Shown in pieces: positions 28,329-64,000 of a DNA stretch of 64,000 bases. A program made the position numbers and the translations under genes. Positions within the stretch are counted from its first letter, which is position 1; every line of letters starts with the position of its first letter. The DNA comes from an uncultured virus (IMG/VR IMGVR_UViG_3300002835_000131). Taxonomy: Duplodnaviria; Heunggongvirae; Uroviricota; Caudoviricetes. The DNA lies in the IMG/VR virus record IMGVR_UViG_3300002835_000131, positions 1 through 64,000 of that record; one strand, 5' to 3'. The notes under the pieces were generated by a model that saw only the letters and a program-made list of their open reading frames with translations, was not told where the DNA came from and ran no database searches.

Positions 28329-29333
28329 ATGGGCGCTTACAAACAATTTTTAGCATCTGATATCGTAGTAACTCCCTTCGAAGTGAATAAAGCATTCAAC
28401 TTCGAGGGAGCAGCCGCATTAACTGCTTCTGGTGTTGGAATTGATAGATTTTTAGGAACTAATATAACAGGAGCTTTTAATCTTGCTTCTGCTCCTACAA
28501 CAGGACAAGTATCAACTCAATATCAAAGTTTAGTATATAATTCAATTAAAGAATTATATTATACAAACTACTTAAGTTCAAGTTATGGTGATAATGTAAA
28601 TACAGCTAGTTTAATACCTGGAGCTGATACAGCAGGAGATAGATATGTTGGTACCACACAAACACCTAACTATTTTAACTACTTACAAACTACATTAACT
28701 TACCAAAGATATTTTCCTACAGGTTCAAATGATATTATAGGTGTTATATCTATTCCTTCACGTTTATTTGGAGATTATATTCAACCTAAGTCATTTGTTT
28801 ATACTACACCTAGTGGTAGCATAACAGATGATGGAGAAGGTAATATAATAGATGAAAACTTAGAAATTATAGGTAATATATTTTATTATCAAGGACTTAT
28901 AACTATTACAACTTCTAATCCTATAGGATATGGATTTGTAACTTATGGTAATACACTTTATGGTGGTCAAGCAGGAGATAATACTTCAATTTTAGAATAT
29001 GTTACTGGTAGCAATATAACTTGTTCATTCTCTAGTTCATATAAAATATATGAAACACAATATAAATGTACAATGAGAGAAAATGAATTTAATTTTTCTC
29101 AAAATCCAAGTTTATCCTCAGGTAGTACATTAATATCAAGTTCAATGGGTACTTTCTTTACTCCAGGACAATATTTAACAGATAACGTAACAGGTTCTTA
29201 TTTTTCACCTTATGTAACAACAGTAGGTTTATATGATGAAAATCAAAACTTATTAGCAGTAGGAAAACTATCCCAACCCTTACCTGTATCACCTACTACA
29301 GATACAACAATATTAATTAATTTAGACAGATAA
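28329..29333 (+). CDS. baseplate/tail-collar-like structural protein (paralogue of previous)
   Basis: EFNFSQNPS and YVTTVGLYDE..LLAVGKLSQP shared with 27291-28325. Confidence 0.65.
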   Translation: MGAYKQFLASDIVVTPFEVNKAFNFEGAAALTASGVGIDRFLGTNITGAFNLASAPTTGQVSTQYQSLVYNSIKELYYTNYLSSSYGDNVNTASLIPGADTAGDRYVGTTQTPNYFNYLQTTLTYQRYFPTGSNDIIGVISIPSRLFGDYIQPKSFVYTTPSGSITDDGEGNIIDENLEIIGNIFYYQGLITITTSNPIGYGFVTYGNTLYGGQAGDNTSILEYVTGSNITCSFSSSYKIYETQYKCTMRENEFNFSQNPSLSSGSTLISSSMGTFFTPGQYLTDNVTGSYFSPYVTTVGLYDENQNLLAVGKLSQPLPVSPTTDTTILINLDR

Positions 29334-29791
29334 TGTTAACATTACCAACTTGGGTTTACAATAGTAAACCCATCACTAACCTCAACGATTTTCCTAAAGA
29401 TACATTTGGATTTATTTATATAGTTAAAAATACTGATACTAATAAATCTTATATAGGTAAAAAAGTATTATACCATAATAAAAAAGTAAAATTAGGTAAA
29501 AAAGAAGTAGCCGAATTAACTGGTGTTGGCCGTAAACCAACTACTAAAATAATAACCAAAGAATCAGATTGGGAAACATATTACGGCTCTAATAAAGAAG
29601 TAATGCAATTAATTAAAGACGGTAAACAAGATTTGTTCACTCGCACTATAATTAAATTAGCACCTAATAAAAAATTACTAACTTACTACGAAACACAAGC
29701 CTTATTTACATATAAAGTATTAGAACACCCAGAATCATTCTATAATGATAATATATTAGGTAAGTTCTTTACTAAGGACTTTACACTATAG
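29333..29791 (+). CDS. GIY-YIG-family nuclease-like protein
   Basis: GFIYIVKN..SYIGKK; DW.TYYGS; YNDNI. Confidence 0.7.
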   Translation: MLTLPTWVYNSKPITNLNDFPKDTFGFIYIVKNTDTNKSYIGKKVLYHNKKVKLGKKEVAELTGVGRKPTTKIITKESDWETYYGSNKEVMQLIKDGKQDLFTRTIIKLAPNKKLLTYYETQALFTYKVLEHPESFYNDNILGKFFTKDFTL

Positions 29792-29828
29792 TTTGGCTTT
29801 TTAACCATTCTTTCGTATAATATGAGGT

Positions 29829-30758
29829 ATGGTAAATCAACTACTTGTAAATTTAGTAAACTCGGTTTTAGGCATTAGTAAATCTACATCAAAAGGCAAC
29901 TACGCGTATCATTGTCCTTTCTGTAATCACCATAAACCTAAGTTAGAAATCAATTTTACTGAATCAGATAAAAGTGAAAATCCATGGCATTGTTGGAGTT
30001 GTAATAAAAAAGGTAAATCATTAATTAATTTATTTAAAGCAATACATGCTGATCCTGATAAGTTAGCAGAACTAAGACCATTAGTTAAATACACATCAGG
30101 CGAAAAAATAGTACAAACTGCAACTATTTTAAAATTACCTCAAGAATTTAAACCATTAACTAATATATCTGATAGTAATATTATAGGTAAACATGCTTTA
30201 AATTATATTAAAAAACGAGGTATAACAGAAGATGATATATTAAAATATAATATAGGTTATTGTGAGGGTGGTAAATTTAATAAAATGATTATTTTACCAT
30301 CATATGATGCTACGGGCAAATTAAATTACTTTACTGCTCGTAACTTTGATAAAACATCAAGTCTTAAATATAAGAATCCAGATGTGTCACGTAACGTTAT
30401 ACCATTCGAACTGTTTATAAACTGGAATACACCGATTATACTGTGCGAAGGAATGTTTGACGCCATTGCTATTAAACGAAATGTTATACCGTTATTAGGC
30501 AAGAATATACAGTCTACGTTGATGTTAAAGCTAGTAGCATCATCTGTTAAGAAAATTTACGTAGCTTTAGATAGAGACGCATTAAGAGAAGCATTACAAT
30601 TTTGTGAACAATTAATAAATGAAGGCAAAGAAGTATATTTAGTAGATTTAGATGGTAAAGATCCAAGCGAATTAGGATTTAGACATTTTACTGAATTAAT
30701 ACAGAACACCTATCCCCTAACCTTTTCAGGCTTGCTTGAAAAAAAATTATCATTATGA
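29829..30758 (+). CDS. DNA primase
   Basis: Zn finger CPFC..HCWSC; Toprim CEGMFDA, LDRD, KDP; early-type promoter at 29792. Confidence 0.9.
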   Translation: MVNQLLVNLVNSVLGISKSTSKGNYAYHCPFCNHHKPKLEINFTESDKSENPWHCWSCNKKGKSLINLFKAIHADPDKLAELRPLVKYTSGEKIVQTATILKLPQEFKPLTNISDSNIIGKHALNYIKKRGITEDDILKYNIGYCEGGKFNKMIILPSYDATGKLNYFTARNFDKTSSLKYKNPDVSRNVIPFELFINWNTPIILCEGMFDAIAIKRNVIPLLGKNIQSTLMLKLVASSVKKIYVALDRDALREALQFCEQLINEGKEVYLVDLDGKDPSELGFRHFTELIQNTYPLTFSGLLEKKLSL

Positions 30759-31543
30759 TAGAAAAAAATGTAAACATTAACAAAAAACATGTTAAACGTA
30801 TTTTAGAAGCGGATGTAGATTCTAAACGAGTTAATATATTAGACAGTAGATTCTATAGTAGACATGGAAATTATTATCCATCTGTTACTAATATTTTACA
30901 ATTTATGCCAAAAAATAAATATTTTGAAAATTGGCTTAAAGATGTAGGACATAACGCAGATATTATTGCTCGTAGAGCAGCTGAAGAAGGTACTCAAGTA
31001 CATGACGCCGCTGAAAGATATCTTAAAGGCGAAAAACTACAATGGTTTGATGAGAAAGGAACATCTATTTATTCATTAGATGTATGGAAAATGATTTTAA
31101 AATTCCATGATTTTTGGAGTACTTATAAACCAACTCTAATAGAGAGTGAAATCCATTTATTCTCAGACCAATTTATATATGCTGGTACTTGTGATTTAGT
31201 ACTTGAAATTAATGGTGAAAAATGGATGGTAGATATTAAAACATCAAAATCATTACATACAAGTCAAGAATTACAATTAGCTGCTTACTCACAAGCATGG
31301 AATGAAAACTTTGAAGAGAAAATAGAACGTGCAGGTATATTGTGGTTAAAATCAGCTAAACACGGTCCTGATAAAAATAATAAAAAAATTCAAGGTAAAG
31401 GTTGGGAATTAGCAGAATCTGAGCGTAGCATTGAAGATAATTTAACATTATTTCATTCAATTCATAATCTATTTAAATTAGAAAACCCAAACCCACGCCC
31501 ATCATCTGAACAGTATCCTACAGAAATTCAAATAGGAGTATAA
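30755..31543 (+). CDS. PD-(D/E)xK exonuclease
   Basis: YPSVT, GT.VH, AGTCDL, DIKTS, QLAAY. Confidence 0.85.
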   Translation: MIEKNVNINKKHVKRILEADVDSKRVNILDSRFYSRHGNYYPSVTNILQFMPKNKYFENWLKDVGHNADIIARRAAEEGTQVHDAAERYLKGEKLQWFDEKGTSIYSLDVWKMILKFHDFWSTYKPTLIESEIHLFSDQFIYAGTCDLVLEINGEKWMVDIKTSKSLHTSQELQLAAYSQAWNENFEEKIERAGILWLKSAKHGPDKNNKKIQGKGWELAESERSIEDNLTLFHSIHNLFKLENPNPRPSSEQYPTEIQIGV

Positions 31544-31571
31544 GTATTAATATTTATATATAAACATTAAG

Positions 31572-32534
31572 ATGATTTCTTTAATTGAGCTTTTAAAATC
31601 AATAACTTTAGAAGGTGGCAACGTATTTGGCACCACCTCTAGTATCAAAAAAGAATACATCCAACCCACTCTTAAAAATTTCACTGCTGAATTAAATAAA
31701 GTATACCCAAAAGTAAAATTTAACTTTAATACTTTAGGTTCAGTTGGTAAAAAAGATGAATCTGGTGATATTGATTTAGGTATGAGTGTTGACCAATTTA
31801 TGGATAAAGATGGTAATCCATTATTATCTAATTGGAATATTGATAAAGCTGAATTTGACACTCTATATGAAAAAATTAGAAAACGTTCACGTTCAGCATC
31901 AGAAACTCAAAGCAAATTAAGAGCTATGTTAGAATTAATAGCTACTAATCTTGAAAAGAAATCAGAATATATAGACACTGATTTAAAAGCAGCAGGTAAT
32001 GGCTCAATATTTTGTAATTTTCCTCAATACAATGAAAAAGGAGAAATACTTAATGATAAATCAGTACAAATAGATATTAATGTAGGTAATTTAGATTGGC
32101 TAAATTTTAGTTACTATTCAAATACCTATAAAGATAATGTAAAAGGTTTACATAGAACCCAATTAATGGTAGCTATGTTCCAAGCATTAAATAAAACTTT
32201 TAGTCATGGTACTGGTGTTAAGGATAAAGAAACAGGAGATATAGTAGCGACTAATCCTCAAGAAGCATTAGATGTATTAAACCAAGGATTTAAACTTAAT
32301 TTATCTCAAGATGTATTAAATGATTATTTTGAGTTAATGGATGTTTTAAAGAAAAAACTACCTAAAGATAAATTAAATCAAGTATTAGATATATATTTAA
32401 GAATATTAGACTCAACTAGAGCTGATATTCCATTAGATCTTCAAGAATATTGGATTACTAATCAAAGTCGCTTAGGTCTTAAAGGTAAATTTTTACCTGA
32501 TGATTCTAATTTAAATAAATATAAAGCAGCATAA
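31572..32534 (+). CDS. Pol-beta-superfamily nucleotidyltransferase
   Basis: LGSVGKKDESGDIDL (GS..DxD) and third Asp in VQID. Confidence 0.75.
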   Translation: MISLIELLKSITLEGGNVFGTTSSIKKEYIQPTLKNFTAELNKVYPKVKFNFNTLGSVGKKDESGDIDLGMSVDQFMDKDGNPLLSNWNIDKAEFDTLYEKIRKRSRSASETQSKLRAMLELIATNLEKKSEYIDTDLKAAGNGSIFCNFPQYNEKGEILNDKSVQIDINVGNLDWLNFSYYSNTYKDNVKGLHRTQLMVAMFQALNKTFSHGTGVKDKETGDIVATNPQEALDVLNQGFKLNLSQDVLNDYFELMDVLKKKLPKDKLNQVLDIYLRILDSTRADIPLDLQEYWITNQSRLGLKGKFLPDDSNLNKYKAA

Positions 32535-35500
32535 TGTCAGGTTCAGCAGGTGGAAATAGAATATCTAGGGCAGCAGTAGAAAAAACTGTTCAAGATTATA
32601 TAAATAAAGTATTATCTAAATTCCCTGGATTTAAGGACGCTAAAGCAACTGGTTCTTATAATACAGGAACTAAACAAGACTTTGGTGACATTGATTTAAT
32701 TGTTCATTTAGATAGTAATGATAAAAAATTAGCTAAACAAGATTTAGCTAAATATTTTGCTTCTCTCCCTGATTCAGTTATTGTACCTTTTAAAAGTAAT
32801 AAATATAAAGGAAAAAAATCACTTAGTAGTGGTGAATTAGTAACTGTATTATACCCTATAGTTGGTATGTCTGATGAATTTGTTCAAATAGATAATATTA
32901 TTTCTACTAGTGAAGAAGAATCAACATTTAAAAATACATTCTTAGATTATCCAGCTGAAGTACAAGGTTTACTTTTAGGTTTAGCTAAAGTAATTTGTTT
33001 AGAAGAAGATCCTAAAAAAATATTCACTAGATTAGGTATTACTAATGTACCTGAACTTGAAGCGAATCAAGAATATGAATTTAATTTATCAAGTGCTGGA
33101 TTAACATTACGTATAGTAACATTAGATAATTTTAAAGAACTTAATAGAACTGAGGTTTGGAAATCTTCAAATTGGAGTATTGTTAAAAAATTATTTGACA
33201 ACTACAATATAGATGGTGATTTTAAAACATTATTACAAGATTTAAAATCTAAATTAAAAAACGAACGTTCTAAAAATAGAATAAAAGGTATATTTAAATC
33301 AATGGTGTCTATTAAAAGTGGAGAAGTTGATACACCTAAAGGTGATAATAAACAAGCAGCATTAGACGCAGTTAGTAGTTTATTAGAAAATAAATTATTT
33401 AAAGGATTAGTTAGAGAATTAATCTTACCTTTAATTGAAGCAGATTCAAAGAAAACAGTAGCACTTTATGGTGGTGGTTTTAAACCACCTCACAAAGGTC
33501 ATTTTGAAGTTGTTGAAAAAGCATTAGAGCAATTTCCTCAAATAGATGAATTTATTATTTATGTTGGTTCTGGAACAAGAGATGGAATTACTCAAGCTGA
33601 ATCACTTTTAACTTGGGATATATATAAAAAATACTTACCTTTAAAAGTAAAAGTAGAACCAGCTAAATCACCAATTACAGCTATATATGAGTATATTGAA
33701 AATCATCAAGATGAAGATGTAATATGGGTTATTGGAGCTAGAGATGGTAAAGATGATGATTTTGTAGACTTAGCATCAAAAACTAAAGGTATAGGTAAAT
33801 ATGAAAATGTTGAATTAGCTCCTATAATTACTCAATCAGATACAAGTGGAACTGATGCTCGTCAAGCATTAAAAAAAGGACAAGAAGCATTTTTATCTTT
33901 TATTCCTGAAAAAGTAAAAGAAAAAACAGAAATATTTAATACTTTATCTACTGTCATTCAAGAACTAGTAACAGCTACAGAAGTTATTTGTGATAACTGT
34001 GGCTGGACCTGGAAATTAGCTGATGGTGGTAAGGATTTATATATTTGCCATAACAAATTACCAGATGGTAGTATATGTGGACATGATAATAATCCTGATT
34101 TAAATGAAGGAACTTGTGATTATGATACAGATGTTAAAACAGGTAAAAAATTAGATACACCTGGTGGATTAGAAGAAGGTAAGCAAGTTGGTCCTTTATA
34201 TCACTACACATCAGCCGATGGATTAAAAGGCATCCTTCAGTCTAATAAAATAAATACCTCTGAAGAAAATTATTTAGGTAATGAATTATATTATATTTCA
34301 TTTACTCGTAATAAAAATTTCTATAAAAAAGGATCTAATTTTGGAGTAAAAACAGATTATAGAATTACATTAGATGGAGACAAATTATCTGACAAATATA
34401 AAATAACACCTTTTGCCTACAGACCGGGATGGAACTATGAAGACAATTGGGAATATAATTGGTTAGAAGATGAACCTGAAAGTGTAGTGAGAGATTTCTT
34501 TAATAATACTGGTGATTATGATGAACAAGAAGAAAGAATATCTTTTAAAGGTCCTGAAGGTGGAATTGATAACATAAAAAATTATATCTTAGCTGTTAAT
34601 AAAGTAGAAGATTTAAAAGAAGGTATTATATCATTAAGTGATGAAGAAGAAACAAAATTAAGAAATTTAATTCCTATTTTTATACAAGCTTTAAAAGAAA
34701 AAGACTTTAAAGTAGGATTAACTAATCCTATCAAATACAAAATGGCTTCAGGAGAAGAAGCAGAATTTGTACCATACATTTATGATGATGGTGACACCCG
34801 ATCAGCAGCTAAGTTTTTAACACAAGATAATACTAATTTTAAAGATAATTTTATAGGAATTAATGGAAATTATTGGTTTCCTGCTTTTGAAGGAACATTA
34901 GAATCTATTTGGAAAACATTAACTGGAGATAATCCTAAAGAAGCTCTTTTATCTTCTTTACGTCATGAATTAATTCATGCAAAAGATCCAGCTGTAAATC
35001 ACAAGCCATTAAAAACTAAATATGACCCTTCAAAACCAGAATTATATTATGGTACTTGGGAAGAATTTCCATCACAAACAGGTGAATTTTTAGAAGCTAT
35101 AAAATTTAATAGTTATGAATATATAAATAATAATAAAGATAATTTAAAACAAGCTGTACTTGAGTTAAACTCTTATTATCAAGATATTTTAGATTTTTAT
35201 TCTGGTAAAAATAAAATGTTTAATAAAAGTACAATGGATTGGTTATCTAAAGGAGAAAAAGGTAATGATATTCAAAAATTTATAAGAAAAATAGCAGATT
35301 GGGGAGGATGGTTTTTAGGAATAAATACAAATCCAGGGTGGGATTCAAGAAGTACATTAACTAATTTTCACTCAAATATAGAACAAATAAGAAAATATAA
35401 TCCAGAAGGATATAAAGAATTTCAAAAAGATTTATATAAAACAATTCAAAATACTATTGATTATATTAATACAAAATTACCTAAAGATAGTCCGTTATTA

Positions 35501-35917
35501 AAAGCAGGTGGACAAGGAAAATTAAAAGAAGGTAAAGAAAATAATGACTATAAAAAATATATTCCTGAATTAACTAAATATATGGTTAATCAAGGAATGA
35601 ATATTAAGCCATTACCTGTTGTTAAATTTATTAACAATGATAAAGCAAATGCTGAAAATGTATTTGGCAAAACAGCATTTTACAGCCCAGAAGAAAAATC
35701 AATTACTTTATTTACTATGAATAGACATCCTAAAGATGTTTTACGTTCATTTTCACATGAAATGATACATCATGAACAAAATTTAGATAATAGATTAAAT
35801 AATATAGGTACAACAAATACAAATGAAGACGGAGATTTACCTGAAATTGAAAGAGAAGCTTACAAAAAAGGTAATATGATGTTTAGAAATTGGGAAGACA
35901 GTATTAAAAATAAATAA
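32534..35917 (+). CDS. multidomain protein: Pol-beta NTase + HIGH-type nucleotidyltransferase + Cys-rich module + ART-like + two HExxH domains
   Basis: TGS..GDIDL..VQID; GGFKPPHKGH..SGT.AR; CDNC; LYHYT..ISFTR..EQEE; HELIH; HEMIH. Confidence 0.7.
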   Translation: MSGSAGGNRISRAAVEKTVQDYINKVLSKFPGFKDAKATGSYNTGTKQDFGDIDLIVHLDSNDKKLAKQDLAKYFASLPDSVIVPFKSNKYKGKKSLSSGELVTVLYPIVGMSDEFVQIDNIISTSEEESTFKNTFLDYPAEVQGLLLGLAKVICLEEDPKKIFTRLGITNVPELEANQEYEFNLSSAGLTLRIVTLDNFKELNRTEVWKSSNWSIVKKLFDNYNIDGDFKTLLQDLKSKLKNERSKNRIKGIFKSMVSIKSGEVDTPKGDNKQAALDAVSSLLENKLFKGLVRELILPLIEADSKKTVALYGGGFKPPHKGHFEVVEKALEQFPQIDEFIIYVGSGTRDGITQAESLLTWDIYKKYLPLKVKVEPAKSPITAIYEYIENHQDEDVIWVIGARDGKDDDFVDLASKTKGIGKYENVELAPIITQSDTSGTDARQALKKGQEAFLSFIPEKVKEKTEIFNTLSTVIQELVTATEVICDNCGWTWKLADGGKDLYICHNKLPDGSICGHDNNPDLNEGTCDYDTDVKTGKKLDTPGGLEEGKQVGPLYHYTSADGLKGILQSNKINTSEENYLGNELYYISFTRNKNFYKKGSNFGVKTDYRITLDGDKLSDKYKITPFAYRPGWNYEDNWEYNWLEDEPESVVRDFFNNTGDYDEQEERISFKGPEGGIDNIKNYILAVNKVEDLKEGIISLSDEEETKLRNLIPIFIQALKEKDFKVGLTNPIKYKMASGEEAEFVPYIYDDGDTRSAAKFLTQDNTNFKDNFIGINGNYWFPAFEGTLESIWKTLTGDNPKEALLSSLRHELIHAKDPAVNHKPLKTKYDPSKPELYYGTWEEFPSQTGEFLEAIKFNSYEYINNNKDNLKQAVLELNSYYQDILDFYSGKNKMFNKSTMDWLSKGEKGNDIQKFIRKIADWGGWFLGINTNPGWDSRSTLTNFHSNIEQIRKYNPEGYKEFQKDLYKTIQNTIDYINTKLPKDSPLLKAGGQGKLKEGKENNDYKKYIPELTKYMVNQGMNIKPLPVVKFINNDKANAENVFGKTAFYSPEEKSITLFTMNRHPKDVLRSFSHEMIHHEQNLDNRLNNIGTTNTNEDGDLPEIEREAYKKGNMMFRNWEDSIKNK

Positions 35918-35936
35918 AACAAAATAAAAAGATAAT

Positions 35937-36332
35937 ATGAAAAAATTAATTGACCTTTTAAGAGAAAATTTAGAAGAAGAAACAATGGAAACAAAAGAAA
36001 TTATCACTAAAAACTATGATGTAGTTGATGAAGTAGGTAAATTCTTTGTTGTATCTAAACCAGGTACTAAATCTACAAAAGAAGAAATAATGTTTGAAGC
36101 TGATCTTTTTTCATTAGCTGAAAAAATTAAAAATGGCTTAACATATGAAAATATCATGGGTATGTATAAAAACAAATCAGATGCTGGCAGAACAGCTACT
36201 ATGGTTTTAAAAGAACGTGATATGCAAATTGATGAGTTAAAATCATCAATGGATGAATTTAGAACATCTAAAAAAGATATTGATGAGAAAAAAGCTAAAG
36301 CTAAAGAATTAATTCAAAAATTAAAGCAATAA
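35937..36332 (+). CDS. hypothetical (probable head-internal) protein
   Basis: N-terminus MKKLIDLLRE. Confidence 0.7.
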   Translation: MKKLIDLLRENLEEETMETKEIITKNYDVVDEVGKFFVVSKPGTKSTKEEIMFEADLFSLAEKIKNGLTYENIMGMYKNKSDAGRTATMVLKERDMQIDELKSSMDEFRTSKKDIDEKKAKAKELIQKLKQ

Positions 36333-36333
36333 T

Positions 36334-36975
36334 ATGGCTTACAAATATAAATTAAGAGAAGAAGAAGCAGAAACTACACCTTCAAATCGTGAACAAGTAA
36401 ATTACGATATTGTAGTTACTCCTAATAGTGTTTCTGTAGAAGATACAGTTAAGGCTTTAGAAACATTAGATAACTATGGAATGTATGTTTCTAACATGCG
36501 TAATAAATCATCTATACAAAAAGCTATAGAAGATCACTTTGGTCCTGTTATTCCTGCTAAACGCAAGAAAATGGAAAGAGATCAAGGTTTTCCTTTTCCT
36601 GTTAAAACTAAAACATCAATTGATGATTTTGTTAAATCACATACTTCTAAACCTACATTATTAAAATATAAAGTTAAAGATGATACTATTGTTTTCCCTA
36701 AATCAGGAAATCCAGCTAAAGACTTAACTAAAAAAATTATTGATGTAGTAATGAAAAATGCTAAAATTAATTATTCAATAGTAGATAAAGAAGCAGTTGA
36801 TGAATCAGCAGATAAATTAGATCAAGAAGCAAAATTATATTTTATGCAACAGTTTAAAGCAGGTAAAATTAAAGAATTACCTAAAGATCCTAAAGCTGAG
36901 TATATGAAAGTTAAAATGACTAAAAAAGAATTACAAGAAGTCATTAGAGAACAAATAAAAAATCTAATAAAGTAA
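36334..36975 (+). CDS. hypothetical (probable head-internal) protein
   Basis: YKYKLRE N-terminus; C-terminal MTKKELQEVIREQI. Confidence 0.7.
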   Translation: MAYKYKLREEEAETTPSNREQVNYDIVVTPNSVSVEDTVKALETLDNYGMYVSNMRNKSSIQKAIEDHFGPVIPAKRKKMERDQGFPFPVKTKTSIDDFVKSHTSKPTLLKYKVKDDTIVFPKSGNPAKDLTKKIIDVVMKNAKINYSIVDKEAVDESADKLDQEAKLYFMQQFKAGKIKELPKDPKAEYMKVKMTKKELQEVIREQIKNLIK

Positions 36976-36978
36976 TAA

Positions 36979-37548
36979 ATGTCAGAATCAGTTTTAAAAA
37001 AAGAATTTAAAGAAAAAGATGTACAACGTCTTCGTAATTTAGTTCAAGGTAAATATGGTGAAAAAACTAGTACTAGTATTGGTTTTACCAAACAACAAGA
37101 GTTTCATAATGAAGGAGATGTATGGGAAGAAGATAGTCGTAAATGGACTATTAAAAATGGTATAAAACAAAATGTTACAAAATTGGATAAAGCAAAAGCT
37201 CAAATCCATTTACCCTTGTTTTGCCCTGAATGCTCTAAAGTAATGAAACACCGTTATGATAAACAGTTTTATATTCAATATAACAGATGTTTTAATTGCC
37301 AAATAGAATTTGAAGGTACAATAAAAGCAAAAGGATTATGGGTTGAATATGAAAAAAATATATTAAATTCTGATATTGATAGTATAATTAAAGATTTTAA
37401 TATTTGGATTGATGAAAAAATAGATACCAAAATGGAATCTTATATTACAGAGGCAGGAGATGTAGAATCATGGAACGGTTCAGACAAAGCACAATTATTA
37501 AAGAATAAAGAACAAACAATAGAATACCTACAAAGTTTAAAAAAGTAA
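36979..37548 (+). CDS. hypothetical protein with CxxC..CxxC Zn finger
   Basis: CPEC..CFNC. Confidence 0.7.
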   Translation: MSESVLKKEFKEKDVQRLRNLVQGKYGEKTSTSIGFTKQQEFHNEGDVWEEDSRKWTIKNGIKQNVTKLDKAKAQIHLPLFCPECSKVMKHRYDKQFYIQYNRCFNCQIEFEGTIKAKGLWVEYEKNILNSDIDSIIKDFNIWIDEKIDTKMESYITEAGDVESWNGSDKAQLLKNKEQTIEYLQSLKK

Positions 37549-38153
37549 TGGATATAATAACGGCAGTGATAGTTGCATTTATAACAGCAGTAATAGGACC
37601 AATAGCAATGACTTGGGTTAAAACTAAATTAGAAAGAAAAAAGCAAGATCCATTAGCTGAAGCTATTGAACATAATGCATTAATCGACCATCAAGTTGAT
37701 AATTTATTTGACCAATTAAATTGTGACCGTGTATGGATATCACAATTCCATAATGGTGGGCATTTATATCCTACAGGTAAATCATTACAAAAATTTTCAA
37801 TATTATATGAAAAAGTAAGCATTGATGTAGCATCTGTTAAAGAAGTATACCAAAATATTCCTACATCATTATTTAGTAAAGCATTTTCTACATTATATAG
37901 AGAAGGTGAAATTACATTACCTCATTATGATGCTGATAAAGCTCAAAATTTATTCCCTGTAGACAAAACATGTGGAACTAAATCATTTTATGCTCTTGCT
38001 ATACATGATTTGCATGATCAGTTTATAGGTGTGTTAGTTATTGATTATGTTAATGAAAATCATACATTAACGCTAGAAGAATGGATATTTATAAGACAGA
38101 AGATAGGTGCTATAGGTACACTACTAAGTAATTACTTAAAAACTAAAAAATAA
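37548..38153 (+). CDS. TM + GAF-like domain protein (architecture like T4 holin T)
   Basis: N-terminal TM; CDRVWISQFHNG; FIGVLVIDY. Confidence 0.55.
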   Translation: MDIITAVIVAFITAVIGPIAMTWVKTKLERKKQDPLAEAIEHNALIDHQVDNLFDQLNCDRVWISQFHNGGHLYPTGKSLQKFSILYEKVSIDVASVKEVYQNIPTSLFSKAFSTLYREGEITLPHYDADKAQNLFPVDKTCGTKSFYALAIHDLHDQFIGVLVIDYVNENHTLTLEEWIFIRQKIGAIGTLLSNYLKTKK

Positions 38154-38356
38154 TGGGTACATTTAACACATATAAATATTTTAACAATCGTCGTTTAGTT
38201 GAAAATAATGAGATGATGGAAGAAGATATATTAAATCCTGTAATTAAATTTGATGTTAGTGAAAAACTATATAAAATATTAAAGGATAATCCTGATTTAC
38301 TAGACACTAGTATGTCACAATTTCACTACAAAATTAATGATCTATTAAGTAAATAA
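38153..38356 (+). CDS. hypothetical protein
   Basis: Stop/start-coupled ORF. Confidence 0.6.
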   Translation: MGTFNTYKYFNNRRLVENNEMMEEDILNPVIKFDVSEKLYKILKDNPDLLDTSMSQFHYKINDLLSK

Positions 38357-38357
38357 T

Positions 38358-38708
38358 ATGGATGCAATTCAACAAGTAGCTAAGGAAAAATTAGAAATTA
38401 TCAAAGACAAAATTGATACTTACAATACACCTACAGTAAAATATTTTTTAAAACTTTATGCTAATGGTAAAACAGTGGATGAATTAGATCCAATAACTGA
38501 TTTTGTTATTATTAATAAAATATTTAATACACCTAGATTAAAAGAACGCATTGATAATATATTAAATGAATTATTAACTGAAAAACTTTGCCCTAAAGGC
38601 GAAGCATATCGTCAACGTAGACTTGCATCTGGCGAAAAATCTTCAGCTTATTTATCAGGTCGAGCTGTTAAGGTATGTAAAGGATTAATGTCAGGCAAGA
38701 AAAAATAA
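38358..38708 (+). CDS. hypothetical protein with basic C-terminal module
   Basis: LLTE followed by KLCPKG..SAY..CKG. Confidence 0.65.
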   Translation: MDAIQQVAKEKLEIIKDKIDTYNTPTVKYFLKLYANGKTVDELDPITDFVIINKIFNTPRLKERIDNILNELLTEKLCPKGEAYRQRRLASGEKSSAYLSGRAVKVCKGLMSGKKK

Positions 38709-38980
38709 TGGACAATTTAAAACGTCTAGTACAAGAATCACTACGTGACTGGTTTAAAAAAGAAAAATGGGTCCGTATAGATACTCAAGGTAACATCGCA
38801 GGTGACTGTGGTACAATGCCTAAAGGTAAAGCAACACAACGTTGCTTACCATTAGCTAAAGCAAAACGCTTAACTAAAGCAGAACGTGCCGCAACAACAC
38901 GCAAAAAAGTTGAGGGTAGTAAAAAAGGTAAACAATTTGTATCCAATACAGAAAAAGCAAAAGTTAAGTTTAACAAATAA
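38708..38980 (+). CDS. small basic protein
   Basis: LRDWFKKEKWV..CG..CLP; N-terminal LKRLVQE. Confidence 0.7.
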   Translation: MDNLKRLVQESLRDWFKKEKWVRIDTQGNIAGDCGTMPKGKATQRCLPLAKAKRLTKAERAATTRKKVEGSKKGKQFVSNTEKAKVKFNK

Positions 38981-39011
38981 CACATATTTATAATATATAA
39001 CTATATAAAAC

Positions 39012-45020: not shown

Positions 45021-45464
45021 ATGAAACTATCAGAAATTAAAAAAGCAATTAAAGAAGAATATGCTTCATCAAAAAAGGTATTAGCCATTGGTGGTGTTAT
45101 TGTTATCAACCCTAAAGTTGCTAAAATGAAATACATTTTATCTGATGTTAGAGCTGTATTAGGTGTAACTATTGTTAATAACAGAGAATATCAGTCAGGT
45201 AATCCATCATCACAATATGAATATGCTTATTTAGATATTAAAATTGATCCATCACCATTCCCTAAAGGATTAAATGACAATACTAATATTGTAACTAAAG
45301 TAGAAAAAGATATTAAATCAATTCGTGGTGTTGTTACATTTAAATTGAAAGAAAAAGCACATGATGCTAAAACTTGGACTATATCAGAAACTCCAGATCC
45401 TCAATCTGGCAAATCAGCTCCATATGGTTCAGGATATGCTCCATTTAAAAAAATAAAAAAATGA
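45021..45464 (+). CDS. hypothetical protein
   Basis: Start moved to ATG at 45021 (MKLSEIKKAIKEE). Confidence 0.7.
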   Translation: MKLSEIKKAIKEEYASSKKVLAIGGVIVINPKVAKMKYILSDVRAVLGVTIVNNREYQSGNPSSQYEYAYLDIKIDPSPFPKGLNDNTNIVTKVEKDIKSIRGVVTFKLKEKAHDAKTWTISETPDPQSGKSAPYGSGYAPFKKIKK

Positions 45465-45778
45465 TTAATCTTATTCAATTATTAACTGAAGCTAAAGAAA
45501 GTTTTGAAACATTTGCTAAAAATCGTTTAGCAGGTGCTGAAAAAATTATAGCTAATGCTAAAGAAAAAGGCGGCGATGCTTTATTAACATATACTCACTT
45601 TAATGTGAAACCATCTTATTATAAAAAAGCTATAAAAGGTAAATTTGATAAAGAAGCAGCTAAAAAAGAATTCGATGAAACCTATAAAAAAATATCATTA
45701 GATATGACTCAAAATGAATTCCAACGTGAAGTTGGTCGTTTAGAAGTATTAGGCGAATTGTTAATTAGAGAAAAATAA
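45461..45778 (+). CDS. hypothetical protein
   Basis: N-terminus MINLIQLLTE. Confidence 0.7.
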   Translation: MINLIQLLTEAKESFETFAKNRLAGAEKIIANAKEKGGDALLTYTHFNVKPSYYKKAIKGKFDKEAAKKEFDETYKKISLDMTQNEFQREVGRLEVLGELLIREK

Positions 45779-45779
45779 T

Positions 45780-46403
45780 ATGTTAAACGCGGATATTCCA
45801 AGTTTTAAAGCTTTAGTTCGTAAATCATATTTCACTAAAAATAAAAAAGATTCAGAAGTATTTTTAAATGTTTATGTTTTTGGACTACAATCATGTTCCG
45901 GAAAAATATTAACATTTCATGTTATGACTGATGATGGTATGGTTAGAAATAGGGTTCCAATATCTGAAATCTATACTAAAATTCCAGAAAACGACATTCC
46001 ATTTAATTTTAAACAATTATGGGATTGTTTTTCAGTTAATGTATCAGTTGTAGAATATGATTTTTTATCATATCATAGAGCTCAAATTGTTTTAAGAGAC
46101 GGAAGTAAAGTTTGGGGAACTTATATGTTTACTGTAGATTGGTATGATAATCCATATAGTGATGAACCATCAGATTATAAATGTGGACATATATTTAAAG
46201 CAGATGATGGATATTTAATGTGTCAACCAAATAATAGATTATTTTGGAAAGATTCAAATTGGGTAACTAAAAAATTACCTGAAGATTTAAAACAATTTAA
46301 AGTAGACACTGAATTACCATCAGTAGAAAACCAATCTGATAGATGGGTAACTGAAGATGGAGATTCATTTTATTACGATATGATTGATACTAAAAGAAAA
46401 TGA
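45780..46403 (+). CDS. hypothetical phage protein
   Basis: QLWDCFS, YMFTVDW, QPNNR. Confidence 0.75.
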   Translation: MLNADIPSFKALVRKSYFTKNKKDSEVFLNVYVFGLQSCSGKILTFHVMTDDGMVRNRVPISEIYTKIPENDIPFNFKQLWDCFSVNVSVVEYDFLSYHRAQIVLRDGSKVWGTYMFTVDWYDNPYSDEPSDYKCGHIFKADDGYLMCQPNNRLFWKDSNWVTKKLPEDLKQFKVDTELPSVENQSDRWVTEDGDSFYYDMIDTKRK

Positions 46404-46930
46404 TCAAACTCATTGATTTATTAACAGAAAGTTACTCATTCACAGGTCCTAAAAAAACAAGTGATGGTGTACGTTATAATTTTATAAATAAAAAAGGAAA
46501 CAATATTTTTGTTTCTATAAATAATTCATATGAAGATTACTGGATATCTTTAGTGAATTCTAAAGCTAAACCTGAAGATATAACTAATGATGATTTAATA
46601 TTAGATGTTAGTTTTGGTTTAAATAAAGGAAATCCATGGGCTCAAACTGAATCAGGAGACGGTATAGCAGTATTAAATACTGTTGTTGATATTCTAAAAA
46701 AATTTATTGAAATTGACTTTAAAGGCTATGGTGAATTTACATTAGAATGCCATCCTGCTAATGAGGCAGATGAAGAAACAAGTAGAAATAGTAAACGAGA
46801 TAGAATATATCAAAGTTTAGCTGAAAAAATGATGAAACAATTACCATATGTGACTAAAGTTGAATCTTTAGGTGGCAGTTGGGGAGATGATGAATATAAA
46901 TTATATATACTAATAAATAAAAATATATAA
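46400..46930 (+). CDS. hypothetical protein
   Basis: N-terminus MIKLIDLLTE; KRDRIY. Confidence 0.7.
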   Translation: MIKLIDLLTESYSFTGPKKTSDGVRYNFINKKGNNIFVSINNSYEDYWISLVNSKAKPEDITNDDLILDVSFGLNKGNPWAQTESGDGIAVLNTVVDILKKFIEIDFKGYGEFTLECHPANEADEETSRNSKRDRIYQSLAEKMMKQLPYVTKVESLGGSWGDDEYKLYILINKNI

Positions 46931-55831: not shown

Positions 55832-57709
55832 ATGGCAGACAAAGGCTTATTTTCACGATTACAACGACTGTTCTCTACTGATGTAGTGATGAGAAATCAG
55901 GGTGGTGATCAATTAAAAGTAATGGACGTTAACACCATACAACAAACAGGTGATATCGCTACTAACTCATTAATGGATAGATATAATAGAATCTATTCAA
56001 CTAATGCATCTTCACTTTATGGAGCTCAATTAAATTTAAATTATCAATACTTACGTACCCAATTATATTCAGACTATGATATCATGGATCAGGATGCAAT
56101 TGTTGGTTCTGCACTTGATATTGTAGCTGATGAGTCTACATTAAAAGATGATATGGGTGAAGTATTATCTATTCGTTCATCAGATGAAAACATTCAAAGA
56201 ATTTTATATAACTTATTTTATGATGTATTAAATATCGAATTTAATTTATGGTCTTGGATTCGTCAAATGTGTAAATATGGTGATTTTTTCTTAAGATTAG
56301 AAATTGCTGAAAAATTTGGTGTATATAATGTTATTCCATACACAGCGTATCATATTGAAAGACAAGAAAATTATGATAAAGACAAACCAGCGTCTGTTCG
56401 TTTCCAATTTAAACCTGAAGGATTTTTATCAGGTGATGGTTATTACAATACACCTAATTTAGGCCGTCAAAACGAACCAGGTATTTTCTTTGAAAACTAT
56501 GAGGTTGCTCACTTTAGATTAATTACAGATGTTAATTATTTACCATATGGTAGATCTTATCTAGAACCAGCTCGTCGTTTATATAAACAATACGCGTTAA
56601 TGGAAGATGCAATGTTAATCCATCGTGTAGTTCGTTCACCAGAAAAACGTACTTTCTTTATTAATGTTGGTTCTATCCCGCCTAATGAAGTTGAAGCATT
56701 TATGCAGAAAACTATTAGTTCAATGAAACGTACTCCATTAATGGATCAAAAGACAGGTGAATATAACGTAAAATATAACATGCAAAACTTACTAGAAGAT
56801 TTTTATATTCCAGTAAGAGGTAATGACCAAGCAACACGTATTGAAAATACTAAAGGTTTAGATTACGATGGTATTCAAGACGTTGCATATTTAAGAGATA
56901 AATTATTTGCAGCATTAAAGGTACCTAAAGCATTTTTAGGTTATGATAAAGATTTACAAGGTAAAGCAACATTAGCAGCGGAAGATATTCGTTTTGCTCG
57001 TACAATTGATCGTATTCAACGTATTACATTGTCTGAATTATATAAAATCGCATTAGTACATTTATATGTTCAAGGTTATACTAATGATGAATTAACTAAC
57101 TTCGAGTTATCGTTAACCACACCGTCTATTATATATGATCAAGAACGTATTATGTTAATGAAGGAAAAAGTTGATTTAGCTAAAAACATCATTGAAACTA
57201 AATTAATGCCTACTGATTGGGTTTATGACAATGTATTCAGATTCTCTGAAGATTCATATGATGAATATAGAGATATGATGATTGAAGATGCAAAACGTGA
57301 ATTTAGAATCGCACAAATTAAAGAAGAAGGTAATGATCCAGTAGAAACAGGTAAATCTTATGGTACACCACATGATTTAGCCAGTTTATATAGTAAAAAC
57401 GGCAGACCAGAAGGTGAATTACCACCAGGATATAATAATGATACACAATTAGGTCGTCCAAAAGAAAAAGTATCTAATATTAACACACAAGATAGCGCGT
57501 TAGGTCGTGATAGATTAGGTGTTAAAGATATGAAATCAGATGACCAACCAGGATATGGTAAATCAACAACCAAACCGTTTGCTTTAGAAAATGCTAAGTC
57601 AGCTTTCGCAAGAAATAAACGTTTGTTTGAACAAGTTGACAAAAAATTATGTCTTAGTCAAGAAAAACCAGGAGATTCGCTATTAGATGAATCCCAAATT
57701 AGAGAATAA
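55832..57709 (+). CDS. portal protein (gp20-like)
   Basis: MEDAMLIHRVVRSPEKR, LEDFYIPVRG, ALKVPK. Confidence 0.95.
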   Translation: MADKGLFSRLQRLFSTDVVMRNQGGDQLKVMDVNTIQQTGDIATNSLMDRYNRIYSTNASSLYGAQLNLNYQYLRTQLYSDYDIMDQDAIVGSALDIVADESTLKDDMGEVLSIRSSDENIQRILYNLFYDVLNIEFNLWSWIRQMCKYGDFFLRLEIAEKFGVYNVIPYTAYHIERQENYDKDKPASVRFQFKPEGFLSGDGYYNTPNLGRQNEPGIFFENYEVAHFRLITDVNYLPYGRSYLEPARRLYKQYALMEDAMLIHRVVRSPEKRTFFINVGSIPPNEVEAFMQKTISSMKRTPLMDQKTGEYNVKYNMQNLLEDFYIPVRGNDQATRIENTKGLDYDGIQDVAYLRDKLFAALKVPKAFLGYDKDLQGKATLAAEDIRFARTIDRIQRITLSELYKIALVHLYVQGYTNDELTNFELSLTTPSIIYDQERIMLMKEKVDLAKNIIETKLMPTDWVYDNVFRFSEDSYDEYRDMMIEDAKREFRIAQIKEEGNDPVETGKSYGTPHDLASLYSKNGRPEGELPPGYNNDTQLGRPKEKVSNINTQDSALGRDRLGVKDMKSDDQPGYGKSTTKPFALENAKSAFARNKRLFEQVDKKLCLSQEKPGDSLLDESQIRE

Positions 57710-59428: not shown

Positions 59429-59429
59429 T

Positions 59430-59654: not shown

Positions 59655-59667
59655 TAACTCATTATAA

Positions 59668-61011: not shown

Positions 61012-61617
61012 ATGAGACAAGTATTAATTGAAACACAATTATTTTCTCCTAAAGCTGTTAGGTTAACTGAAGGAACTAATCCTGGAGGTAACATATTAGT
61101 AGAAGGTGTGTTAGCTACTGTCGAAGTAAAAAACGGTAATGGTAGATATTACGCTAAAGAATTATGGGAACGTGAAATGGATCGCTACATGGAATCAGTT
61201 CGAGAAAACAGAGCATTAGGTGAATTAGACCACCCAGATTCTTCAATTATTAACTTAAAAAATGTTTCACATAATATTAAAAAATGCTGGTGGAATGGAG
61301 ATAATGTAATGGGTTTAATTGAAATTTTACCTACTCCATCTGGTAACATCTTAAAAGCATTAATTGAAAGTGGTATTACAGTAGGTGTATCATCAAGAGG
61401 AATGGGTTCGTTAGAACAAAAAGGTAATGTAATGGAAGTACAAGATGACTTTGAATTACTATGTTGGGATTTTGTTTCAACACCTTCTAATCCTGGTTCA
61501 TGGATGCAACCAACCAACTTAAACGAATCATATACTCCAGGTACAAATCAATACGGTAAAATTAATTCAATTATTACTGATATTCTATGTGCTAATGGAT
61601 CATGTCCGTTATTCTAA
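61012..61617 (+). CDS. prohead core protease (gp21-like)
   Basis: NGNGRYY, ALGELDHP, VSH, GVSSRGMGS, DFVSTPS. Confidence 0.95.
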   Translation: MRQVLIETQLFSPKAVRLTEGTNPGGNILVEGVLATVEVKNGNGRYYAKELWEREMDRYMESVRENRALGELDHPDSSIINLKNVSHNIKKCWWNGDNVMGLIEILPTPSGNILKALIESGITVGVSSRGMGSLEQKGNVMEVQDDFELLCWDFVSTPSNPGSWMQPTNLNESYTPGTNQYGKINSIITDILCANGSCPLF

Positions 61618-61618
61618 C

Positions 61619-62246: not shown

Positions 62247-62383
62247 ACACTTCTGTGTGTTTTAGATAATCTGGACATATGTATATTAGAATATACTGCC
62301 CGCAATCGCATTTGCAGTATCTATAAATAACAATTCTATTACACTTTAAATAAGTGTATTTCCCAAACAAAATTTTAGGACAA

Positions 62384-63442
62384 ATGAGTAAAAACAGAGA
62401 TTTGCTTAAAGAAGCAATCGAAGACGCTAAAGTTGTTAAAGAAACAGCAATAGCAAGCGCAAAAGCAGCACTTGAAGAACACTTTACTCCACAATTAAAA
62501 TCTATGCTATCAGCTAAACTTGCAGAAATGGAAGAAATGGATGTTGAAGAAGCAGAGATGGATGATATGGAAGAAATGTATTCTAAAAAAGAAGAAAACT
62601 TAATGGGCTACAAAGAAGTTAAAGAAGAAGAAGATCTAATCAACAACCCAAAAGGTCCAACAGCACATGGTAATGTAGCTGAAGAAGAATTAGATGAACT
62701 TAATCTTGACGAATTATTAGCTGAATTAGAAGCAGACATGAAAGACGAAAACATGCATGCTGAAGACGACGAAATGAAAAAAGAAGAATTAAACGAAGCA
62801 GAAGGTGAAGAAGAAGTTGAAACTGAAGAAGAAATCAACATTGAAGACATGACTGAAGAAGAGTTAAAATCATTCATTGAAGACGTAATTAAAGACATGG
62901 TTGAATCTGGCGAATTAGAAGCTGGTGAAGGCATGGAAGGTGAAGAAGGCGAAGAAATGGAAAGTGAAGAAGAAGAAGTTTCAATTGATGAAATTTTAGC
63001 TGAAATCGCATTAGACGAAGCTAAGAAAAAAGGTGACAAAGAAGACAAGAAAGACAAAGAAGAAATGACTAAACTTAAAAAAGAGTTAGAAGAAGCTATG
63101 TCAACTATTGCTACTATGAGAACTGACATCAATGAAGTTAATTTGTTAAATGCGAAATTACTTTACACTAACAAAATTTTCAAAGCTAAAAACTTAACCG
63201 AGTCACAAAAAGTAAAGGTTTTAAATGCATTTGATAAAGCATCAACAGTAAAAGAAACTAAATTAGTATTCGAAACATTATCAGAAGGTTTAAAAGAAAC
63301 TTCTAAATCACATGTTAATGAATCATTGAAAACTAGTTTAGCATCTAAAACAACAGGTATCATGCCATCGGCAAGAAAACCTATTGTAGAAGTTAATGAC
63401 ACATTCAAAAGAATGCAAAAAATAGCAGGAATTATTAAATAA
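62384..63442 (+). CDS. prohead core scaffolding protein (gp22-like)
   Basis: Acidic coiled coil between protease and capsid genes; NLLNAKLLY; ends RMQKIAGIIK; start moved to ATG at 62384. Confidence 0.85.
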   Translation: MSKNRDLLKEAIEDAKVVKETAIASAKAALEEHFTPQLKSMLSAKLAEMEEMDVEEAEMDDMEEMYSKKEENLMGYKEVKEEEDLINNPKGPTAHGNVAEEELDELNLDELLAELEADMKDENMHAEDDEMKKEELNEAEGEEEVETEEEINIEDMTEEELKSFIEDVIKDMVESGELEAGEGMEGEEGEEMESEEEEVSIDEILAEIALDEAKKKGDKEDKKDKEEMTKLKKELEEAMSTIATMRTDINEVNLLNAKLLYTNKIFKAKNLTESQKVKVLNAFDKASTVKETKLVFETLSEGLKETSKSHVNESLKTSLASKTTGIMPSARKPIVEVNDTFKRMQKIAGIIK

Positions 63443-63470: not shown

Positions 63471-64000
63471 ATGAGCACAATTCAATCATTATTAGAATCA
63501 GCTAGTCCTTGGAAATCACTCCAAAGCGATGCAGCTAAATTGTCTTCTAAATGGAACAAAACGGGTCTATTAGAAGGCTTAACAAATGTAGAGGCAAACA
63601 ACATGTCTTTATTATTAGAAAACCAAGCTAAGCAATTAGTTATGGAACAATCAGATACAGGTGGAGGTTCATCAGCAGGTTCATTCTCTGTTGGTCAATC
63701 AGAAAACTGGGCTGGTATTGCTTTACCTTTAGTACGTAAAGTATTTGCTCAAATTGCAGCAAAAGAATTTGTTTCAGTTCAACCAATGTCAATGCCTTCA
63801 GGTCTTGTGTTCTTCTTAGACTTCCAATACGGAACAGCTAAAGATCCATTTGCAGTAGGTAGTTCATTGTATGGTAACAGAAATGCAACAGGTGAATTCC
63901 CGTTTGCAACTCCAGCACCATCAGGTGGTTTATACGGAACAGGTCGTTTCACTTACTCTACCAACCAATTCTCATCATCGGCAATCACAATTGCAACTGG
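63471..64000 (+). CDS. major capsid protein (gp23-like), truncated by window end
   Basis: Not in track; KW..TGLLEGL..LLENQ..ALPLVRKVF..FVSVQPMSMPSGLVFFLDF. Confidence 0.93.
   Translation, partial: MSTIQSLLESASPWKSLQSDAAKLSSKWNKTGLLEGLTNVEANNMSLLLENQAKQLVMEQSDTGGGSSAGSFSVGQSENWAGIALPLVRKVFAQIAAKEFVSVQPMSMPSGLVFFLDFQYGTAKDPFAVGSSLYGNRNATGEFPFATPAPSGGLYGTGRFTYSTNQFSSSAITIAT

Follow-up and report, generated by a model that had tools for sequence, protein, structure and literature searches.

The open reading frame at 32534..35917

The window analysed here is a 64,000-base stretch of DNA, positions 1 to 64,000 of the uncultured virus record IMGVR_UViG_3300002835_000131, which is 74,176 bases long in total and has an estimated completeness of 46%. 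Its G+C content is ~28%, and nearly every gene lies on the + strand, including those for P0001, its two neighbours, the genes in 45461..46930 and the portal, protease, scaffold-like and capsid proteins. Our subject is P0001, the 1127-residue product of the open reading frame (ORF) at 32534..35917, whose start codon shares one base with the stop codon of the gene before it (TAATG). These coordinates are those of the original prediction, in which the product was regarded as a polyprotein of enzymes matured by the head protease. P0001 is a multi-domain viral polypeptide carrying a nucleotidyltransferase (NTase), an adenylyltransferase, a Zn ribbon, an ADP-ribosyltransferase (ART) fold and two HExxH modules. 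The window also encodes a gp21-type prohead serine protease (61012..61617), which matched Peptidase_S77 (PF03420; E 2.6e-31, 109.1 bits, cut-off 27) and phrog_207 (E 4.8e-56). From the evidence presented below, P0001 is probably carried in the head as cargo and cut into pieces by the prohead protease.

The only cultured relatives of P0001 were found in four records of the Flavobacterium phage Immutovirus, a 160-kb myovirus. The Immutovirus homologue (immuto35A_182 of vB_FspM_immuto; host Flavobacterium sp. LMO8) has 907 residues and is annotated in the record as ‘nicotinamide mononucleotide adenylyltransferase’ (NMNAT). Candidate joints in its sequence are LAE-A, VKE-G, LPE-G and MAE-G. Immutovirus and the window share the gene order of primase, exonuclease, hypothetical protein and the big ORF.

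Module anatomy of P0001

The modules named in the original prediction (NTase, HIGH, CDNC, a short module, ART-like, HELIH and HEMIH) were all recovered where it had placed them. The first, module A (residues 1–295; 32534..33418), begins without an N-terminal leader and appears to be an NTase of the Pol-beta superfamily, as judged from Pfam, motifs and fold. Pfam NTP_transf_2 matched residues 24–83 at E 7.4e-4, with 20.3 bits being under the cut-off of 21, and GS (40–41), D52 and D54 (DxD) and D120 are invariant in 12 relatives. The fold comparison gave Pol beta (3k75_D; residues 1–289) at Z 9.2 and Pol mu at Z 8.4, with other rows at Z 8.2–8.6 including Trf4 (8.6), GLD-2, TUT7 and CdnE (8.3). 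A PDB profile search with module A produced no match at E<=0.01 (best E 0.43), nor did a PDB sequence search with the whole of P0001.

Module B (residues 303–477; 33440..33964), which has junction J2 at its end, is assigned as a HIGH-motif adenylyltransferase by Pfam, PDB profile and fold. It carries PHKGH (319–323; HxGH) and SGTDAR (438–443; SxTxxR), and Pfam CTP_transf_like (PF01467) matched residues 311–444 at E 1.1e-5, with 26 bits over a cut-off of 21. The PDB profile match was NadD 2h29 (E 1.3e-6). The VIA fold search returned PPAT 4nah at Z 16.0 and NaMNAT 3h05 at Z 14.3 (NaMNAT rows 14.3–13.7), and Foldseek returned NadD/PPAT at E ~1e-5. When compared with NCBIfam, module B scored 16–24 bits against the NadD/NMNAT equivalogs and 27 against the NMNAT subfamily model, for which the cut-offs are 112–409; it passed superfamily domain models only, namely PF01467 and TIGR00125 (27.9 versus a cut-off of 27.7). 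As the equivalog scores are far under their cut-offs and the PPAT fold matches about equally, the name ‘NMNAT’ in the Immutovirus record is not established.

The next module (residues 478–525; 33965..34108) resembles a Zn ribbon in its cysteines, with CDNC at 486–489 followed by C505..C514-x-H (span 486–517), and it ends at J3. In relatives the Cys module comes after IKE, INE or VQE. Between J3 and J4 lies a spacer peptide of 23 residues (526–548; 34109..34177), recognised from the sequence and from relatives; in the relative P0217 the peptide is placed after a leader and before ART. Conserved peptides of ~20 residues with cut motifs at both sides recur between modules in many relatives. Such a peptide reads ..SDPQAGTALPYGSGFAPVKE.. 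in P0357–P0447, and the version in the window is the 23-residue GTC..TPGGLEE spacer. These motif-bounded peptides may be released as small internal peptides.

The module at residues 549–696 (34178..34621), ending at J5, appears to have an ART fold, as judged from Pfam and fold comparison, with H557, the Y587 region and EQEE (665–668). In P0001 itself, Pfam Tox-ART-HYD1 (PF15633) matched residues 555–596 at E 6.5e-4 with 20.7 bits, under the cut-off of 25, and the same family was over the cut-off in the homologous modules of P0184 (39.9 bits), P0178 (31.6), P0162 (28.9) and P0164 (27.8). The nearest fold was that of the Tpt1 RNA 2'-phosphotransferase (7yw2; Z 9.1, rmsd 2.8, 94 aligned residues), and a weak row for Tpt1 (8tfz, E 0.12) appeared in the PDB profile search. 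In fold, the ART-like domain of the original prediction is nearer to Tpt1/KptA-type transferases than to T4 Alt.

Two zincin-like modules complete the chain. The first (residues 697–999; 34622..35530), delimited by alignment and model and closed by J6, has HELIH at 811–815, and H811, E812, H815, KDP (817–819) and E844 are invariant in 31 sequences. A model of this module alone has a predicted local distance difference test score (pLDDT) of 83.4 and a predicted template modelling score of 0.82, with disordered ends. Foldseek with HELIH found nothing at E<=0.001, the best rows being weak ones to DPP III zinc peptidases (E 0.014–0.08); the wide VIA search gave helical-bundle rows only (Z<8), and a PDB sequence search gave nothing at E<=0.01 (best E 0.075, unrelated). 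On the modelled structure, no named fold is claimable for this module. The second, smaller domain (residues 1000–1127; 35531..35914) was delimited by alignment and contains HEMIH at 1075–1079 (HEMIHH, 1075–1080) and EIEREAY at 1104–1110. Zincin matches in Pfam were sub-threshold only, to Tox-MPTase2 (E 0.0022) and, in the HEMIH module, to Peptidase_M91 (E 0.043). Tox-MPTase2 matched two of the 31 HELIH members (best E 6.6e-5), and the atlas look-alikes of HEMIH include a cluster with Peptidase_M78 in 14% of its members.

Candidate cleavage sites at the module junctions

All seven tripeptides that the original prediction had listed as protease-type sites are present in P0001: LLE 283–285 and LIE 300–302 at J1, IQE 475–477 at J2, LNE 523–525 at J3, LEE 546–548 at J4, LKE 694–696 at J5 and LKE 997–999 at J6. 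J1, the linker between A and B (33380..33439), contains VRE 293–295 as a further candidate; it is similar to the leader, 10 residues long, on relatives that begin with B, and it keeps one to three [LIVM]xE in 17/17 non-redundant relatives that begin with A. The four-residue motif [LI]xEG occurs four times in P0001 against 1.0 expected, and all four sites (523, 546, 694 and 997) are at module boundaries. The boundaries had been set independently of the motif, by BLAST to homologues with missing or reordered modules and by low-confidence linkers of the models.

The structure models place the same sites between folded parts. In the full-length model, the 10-residue blocks with the J3, J4 and J5 sites (523, 546 and 694) have pLDDT values of 29, 31 and 40, and the blocks of 521–550, the spacer region, range from 29 to 33. 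Sites 694 and 997 are within the ends of the HELIH-only model that are below 50. The non-junction sites 337, 384 and 457, on the other hand, are in well-modelled blocks (pLDDT 85, 88 and 80). A comparison of predicted domain boundaries with LxE positions, proposed along with the original prediction, therefore came out in its favour for 523, 546 and 694, which separate confident domains, and for 694 and 997 in the HELIH-only model. As far as the models can tell, cutting is most likely at the four LxEG sites, which lie in disordered linkers.

P0001 belongs to a large mosaic family. Among 7999 candidates scored, 1034 were relatives of P0001 at E<=0.001, and a further 615 library proteins matched the ART or HELIH modules at the same threshold. 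We distinguished 30 architectures, in which the module order varies, among 102 non-redundant long relatives; the arrangement A-B-Zn-ART-HELIH-HEMIH of P0001 was seen once. In other relatives ART is combined with NUDIX, GNAT, sulfotransferase, PAP2, DUF5661, DUF6934 or ART-PolyVal. The relative P0012 joins what correspond to residues 530 and 1004 of P0001, P0003 joins 525 to 687, and P0005 has kept the ART module and lost HELIH. It is precisely at the junctions that modules come and go or change their order (P0012, P0003 and the 30 architectures); gain and loss of modules there had been foreseen in the original prediction. In the 102 long relatives, [LI]xE was found within 20 residues upstream of 145/194 internal module starts versus 139/1185 control windows inside modules, counts which are drawn from related sequences, so that Fisher p-values overstate their independence. 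Peptidase_S77 is encoded in 5/5 long viral records that carry relatives.

Leaders of modules in first or sole position

In T4, gp21 cuts after L/I-x-E, and internal proteins carry N-terminal capsid-targeting propeptides of 10–19 residues, in which residues 4 and 7 serve targeting and residues 8 and 10 processing; an Asp in T4 at the position equivalent to the P1 Glu prevents processing (PMC9026906, in its available part). We found comparable sequences on the relatives of P0001. B, ART, HELIH and HEMIH each occur elsewhere as the sole or first module behind a short leader, which ends in [LI]xE at the same residue as the junction in P0001 and is most commonly 10 residues long. At ART starts (150 non-redundant contexts), P1 is E in 148/150, P3 is L or I in 138/150, and G, A or S occupies P1' in 142/150; among the 62 proteins that have their ART start in the first 40 residues, a leader of 10 residues is the commonest, in 24/62. 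P3 is L, I or V at all 56 HELIH starts and P1 is E at 50 of them, with five of the remaining six one register off; the HELIH leader has 10 residues in 19/42. Relatives that begin with B have leaders such as MNQLTKFLLE, with [LI]xE in 32/35. Stand-alone HEMIH proteins of 126–150 aa begin with MVKLSQLLKE, and some of them belong to clusters with a longest contig of more than 30 kb.

The resemblance to the capsid-targeting sequence (CTS) of T4 extends to individual positions. Among 57 distinct 10-residue leaders, collected with a filter that left positions 4 and 7 unconstrained, position 4 is hydrophobic in 56 and position 7 in 52. In the T4 genome, IPIII/IPII begin with MKTYQEFIAE and IPI with MKTFKEF, and metagenomic ART proteins begin with MKTFKEFINE and MKPYKQFIAE, near copies of the IPI/IPIII leaders. 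A tblastn search of cultured phages with the leader-bearing ART protein P0314 hit only the Pseudomonas phage Lu11 (two records, E 9e-4), and in this search no cultured phage with a virion proteome carried an ART protein of the P0314 type.

These leaders bear on the question of which enzyme would cut the chain. As a self-processing polyvalent protein, P0001 would be cut by one or both of its own HExxH modules, in the head or after injection, and the prohead protease would be uninvolved. Both zincin-like modules have an intact HExxH with a downstream Glu, and HEMIH is present in nearly all relatives. The relatives with ART-PolyVal, NUDIX, GNAT and DUF5661 are as the polyvalent class would predict, and the available part of Iyer et al. 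2017 (PMC5512222) argues that embedded metallopeptidases (MPTases) release the domains of polyvalent proteins. Nevertheless, ART-alone proteins of 136–200 aa bear the same leader and [LI]xE site and have no HExxH domain, which suggests processing in trans by a common protease, and the motif points to a gp21-type enzyme. The junction motif is the known specificity of gp21, the leaders match the T4 CTS at positions 4, 7, 8 and 10, and the HEMIH module itself stands behind such leaders. Self-processing thus seems quite improbable to us; HEMIH might act in trans.

Weighing the evidence for cleaved head cargo

Several observations weigh against P0001 being cleaved head cargo. The total of [LI]xE in P0001 is at chance (14 versus 13.9 expected from composition), and folding would have to protect the seven that are not at junctions. 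Family-wide, [LI]xEG is barely enriched (107 versus 84.3 expected in 122 members), as P1' varies among G, A, S, N and others. J1 and J2 are within predicted helices (block pLDDT 58 and 56), the model of the whole chain is of low quality (mean pLDDT 53.7), and the E-G/A before ART could be part of the ART domain. P0001 starts with MSGSAGGN, and a leader was found in 0/17 of the relatives that begin with A. The entry of P0001 into the prohead is thus unexplained; a single candidate presents itself, the internal stretch at J1 that resembles a leader, and the T4 literature consulted describes N-terminal leaders only. The gene has those for primase and exonuclease as neighbours, and the protease gene is 25 kb away. 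Among the literature matches listed (10 of 16), none held a virion proteome for either this phage or Immutovirus.

The setting of the gene, beside the primase, the exonuclease and an NAD-synthetase-like gene in a synteny kept in Immutovirus, would also suit an uncleaved cytoplasmic enzyme of nucleotide/NAD metabolism and repair, working as one chain during replication; so would the missing N-terminal leader, the chance-level total of [LI]xE and the helices at J1 and J2. If this were the case, the [LI]xE joints would be recombination seams or relics of leaders from genes that were once separate. Relic leaders, however, should decay evenly, yet P1 and P3 are kept at the ART starts as given above while the rest of the linker is free to vary. 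In addition, the junction sites are in disordered linkers, and a CTS-like leader is found on every module type but A when it stands first or alone. We therefore regard an uncleaved enzyme as unlikely.

Also to be counted among the adverse observations is that the junctions are unevenly kept in relatives. The one before HEMIH is often missing, with [LI]xE within 20 residues of 28/61 internal HEMIH starts; the corresponding figure for Zn-ribbon starts is 17/26, and the minimal forms P0106 and P0093 have no [LI]xE between Zn ribbon and HEMIH. Such weak or absent junctions would be in line with P0001 being packaged and merely trimmed, cut at one or two sites (e.g., J1 or J6) with most modules staying fused. 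Among polyvalent proteins, the N4 vRNAP is packaged unprocessed according to the available part of Iyer et al. (PMC5512222). On the other side, P0001 has four clean LxEG sites in flexible linkers, two of which bound the 23-residue spacer, and other phages encode these modules in genes of their own, with leaders. Trimming alone appears very improbable on these grounds.

The reading of P0001 as cargo matured by the head protease, as the original prediction had it, is supported by the shuffling at junctions, the CTS-like leaders on relatives and the Peptidase_S77 gene in the phage. If P0001 is such a cargo, the precursor, a ‘polyvalent cargo polyprotein’ of a T4-like phage, would be made late and enter the prohead core, where the gp21-type serine protease would cut after the Glu of [L/I]-x-E at the module junctions, possibly in part only. 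The products would be a Pol-beta-type nucleotidyltransferase of ~33 kDa, a NadD/NMNAT/PPAT-like adenylyltransferase of ~20 kDa, a Zn-ribbon peptide of ~5 kDa, the 23-residue spacer, a Tpt1/HYD1-type ART-fold enzyme of ~17 kDa and two zincin-like modules of ~35 and ~15 kDa. The pieces would remain in the head, exit with the DNA and act in the first moments of infection. We infer cleavage, encapsidation, ejection and every enzyme activity from sequences and models. The predicted set plausibly represents an NAD-centred kit, in which an NAD-making adenylyltransferase is combined with an NAD-using transferase.

Other genes in the window

The gene immediately upstream (31572..32534), which is coupled to that of P0001, encodes a second GS..DxD transferase-like protein of 320 aa, with a 14-residue leader ending in TLE followed by GGNVF. 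In eight of the 16 related loci that we surveyed, an ORF opening with ATG runs up to the polyprotein start, and such a leader was present in 8/8; the other eight loci yielded no ORF by the criteria of the script. The Immutovirus copy (immuto35A_181, L001 5091–5999), as annotated, lacks the 14-residue leader and begins with MGGNVF, the predicted mature end. As relatives keep the leader and the Immutovirus copy begins at MGGNVF, leaders would be add-ons placed exactly at the cut point. The upstream protein was also considered as a sequence homologue of module A, but BLASTP gave no significant match (best E 0.24); what the two have in common is the motifs GGN, GS and GDIDL.

Leaders of 10 residues occur elsewhere in the window. 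The next downstream gene (35937..36332) opens with the T4-CTS-like MKKLIDLLRE, and in 45461..46930 two genes have such leaders by sequence, MINLIQLLTE at 45461 and MIKLIDLLTE at 46400, with a leaderless gene (45780–46403) sitting between them.

T4-type head genes are found towards the end of the window. The portal is gp20-like (55832..57709; Portal_T4, E 9.3e-65), and the gp23-type major capsid protein starts at 63471 and runs past the end of the window (63471..64000; to 65147 of the record; Pfam Gp23, E 8.6e-12). VME 57–59 of the capsid protein aligns with LTE 63–65 of T4 gp23, one column off register; we take the latter to be the maturation site. Three ORFs of unknown family (57745–61005) are located between portal and protease, where T4 has core genes 67 and 68, and two of them have [LI]xE near the N-terminus: the ORF at 58592 has MDKLKSIIKQTLKE, and that at 59668 has MKTLQE..LIKE. 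A gene for a DNA/RNA non-specific endonuclease (61589–62212; Endonuclease_NS, E 3.3e-23) sits between the protease and scaffold genes, its start overlapping the end of the protease gene; the protein has a hydrophobic, signal-peptide-like N-terminus.

An acidic scaffold-like protein is encoded at 62354..63442, and leaders of other genes repeat the tail at its C-terminus. The C-terminus (63410–63439) ends with ...FKRMQKIAGIIK, and near-identical words (..RMQKLAGII.E) make up a second leader type of ~20 residues at the N-termini of the genes at 39012, 48329 and 48571. The same words form the C-terminal tail of the ORF 47192–48304 (48278–48301), precede stand-alone HELIH and ART proteins (P0216 and P0336) and link modules after HELIH in P0245–P0257. 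The scaffold-tail leader may load cargo by mimicking the contact between scaffold and shell.

Directly before the primase lies a gene of the ‘NAD synthetase’ PHROG family (29333–29791; phrog_447, E 2.4e-34), and in Immutovirus, too, a gene named ‘NAD synthetase’ lies upstream of the primase, at a distance of ~3 kb. An NAD synthetase-type gene near the primase is consistent with the NAD theme around the polyprotein. A promoter and terminator scan of 29000–39500 remained at the level of shuffled sequence, with 72 promoter-like elements versus 69.7 expected and 2 terminator-like elements versus 2.4. Far from this region, three small ORFs (2243, 3127 and 4432) open with the same words, MMLYL.I+K.KDM, which points to a 5' element that is repeated in the early region; GC skew is extreme, at 0.68, over the initial 2 kb of the window.

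Comparison with known systems

The closest comparison is with T4's IPI, IPII and IPIII internal proteins and with its Alt, which involve the same protease family (Peptidase_S77) and the same L/I-x-E motif as this phage. The leaders on relatives of P0001 are like those of T4 in having 10 residues, with hydrophobic positions 4 and 7, L/I at 8 and E at 10, and an NAD-using transferase fold in the cargo is common to Alt and P0001. The two systems differ in that each T4 cargo is a protein by itself, carrying a single N-terminal propeptide (Alt undergoes a further cut at its C-terminal end), whereas P0001 has up to seven modules, internal sites and no leader. The ART fold of P0001 is of the Tpt1/HYD1 type, and its Pfam family differs from those given for T4 Alt in the available part of the literature. 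The phages themselves also differ from T4, being uncultured, aquatic and Immutovirus-like, and so does the host range.

The head ejection proteins of the giant phages phiKZ and SPN3US also offer a comparison. The cut motif in these phages is A/S/G-x-E rather than L/I-x-E. Their gp21-related protease (gp175/gp245) cuts many internal head proteins after the Glu of a short motif, and propeptides have several sites (PMC9026906 and PMC10052503, both in the parts available). All cleavages given for SPN3US in the accessible part of PMC10052503, the self-cleavage of the protease aside, take off N-terminal propeptides; folded enzyme modules are not parted by them.

The polyvalent proteins of Iyer, Burroughs, Anand, de Souza and Aravind 2017 (PMC5512222) resemble P0001 in combining unrelated enzyme domains, including ART, Pol-beta NTase and zincin-like HExxH domains, and they resemble its family in their predicted DNA-borne delivery and highly mosaic architectures, as far as the available part of that paper goes. 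The proposal made there was autoprocessing, either by MPTases within the chain or by an assemblin-like peptidase fused to its C-terminus; the same part describes neither T4-type leaders nor L/I-x-E joints, and it places Pol-beta NTases in conjugative-element proteins only. For MuF- and portal-fused effectors (Iyer et al. 2022, PMC9503650), ART, Nudix and NAD/ADP-ribose enzymes were argued to be packaged in the head and injected, especially in myoviruses. Those effectors are targeted by fusion to a structural head domain, whereas targeting here would depend on short cleavable leaders and protease joints. Within the library searched, we found no paper describing gp21-jointed multi-enzyme polyproteins.

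It is attractive to speculate, albeit tentatively, that aquatic T4-like phages possess a combinatorial capsid-cargo system. In such a system, interchangeable modules bounded by cut sites would be freely strung, split and reordered behind a few leader types, one of which copies the C-terminal tail of the scaffold, and the prohead protease would serve as a polyprotein maturase, as in RNA viruses. The injected NAD-centred kit, in which a mini nucleotidyltransferase and two proteases would accompany the adenylyltransferase that forms NAD and the transferase that uses it, might then pre-empt host defences that deplete NAD or damage nucleic acids.

If the prohead protease genuinely cuts P0001 as a head cargo, ‘leader plus gp21 cut’, the rule for small single proteins in T4, would also hold for long multi-enzyme precursors that can be shuffled, and [L/I]-x-E joints together with 10-residue leaders would provide a sequence rule for predicting injected-protein genes in uncultured T4-like phages. 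The identities of the modules would then name candidate counter-defence enzymes. Under the same condition, polyvalent proteins might be processed by a route other than the autoproteolysis that has been proposed for them. Two known kinds of protein meet in P0001: the CTS/gp21 head cargo of T4 and the polyvalent proteins.

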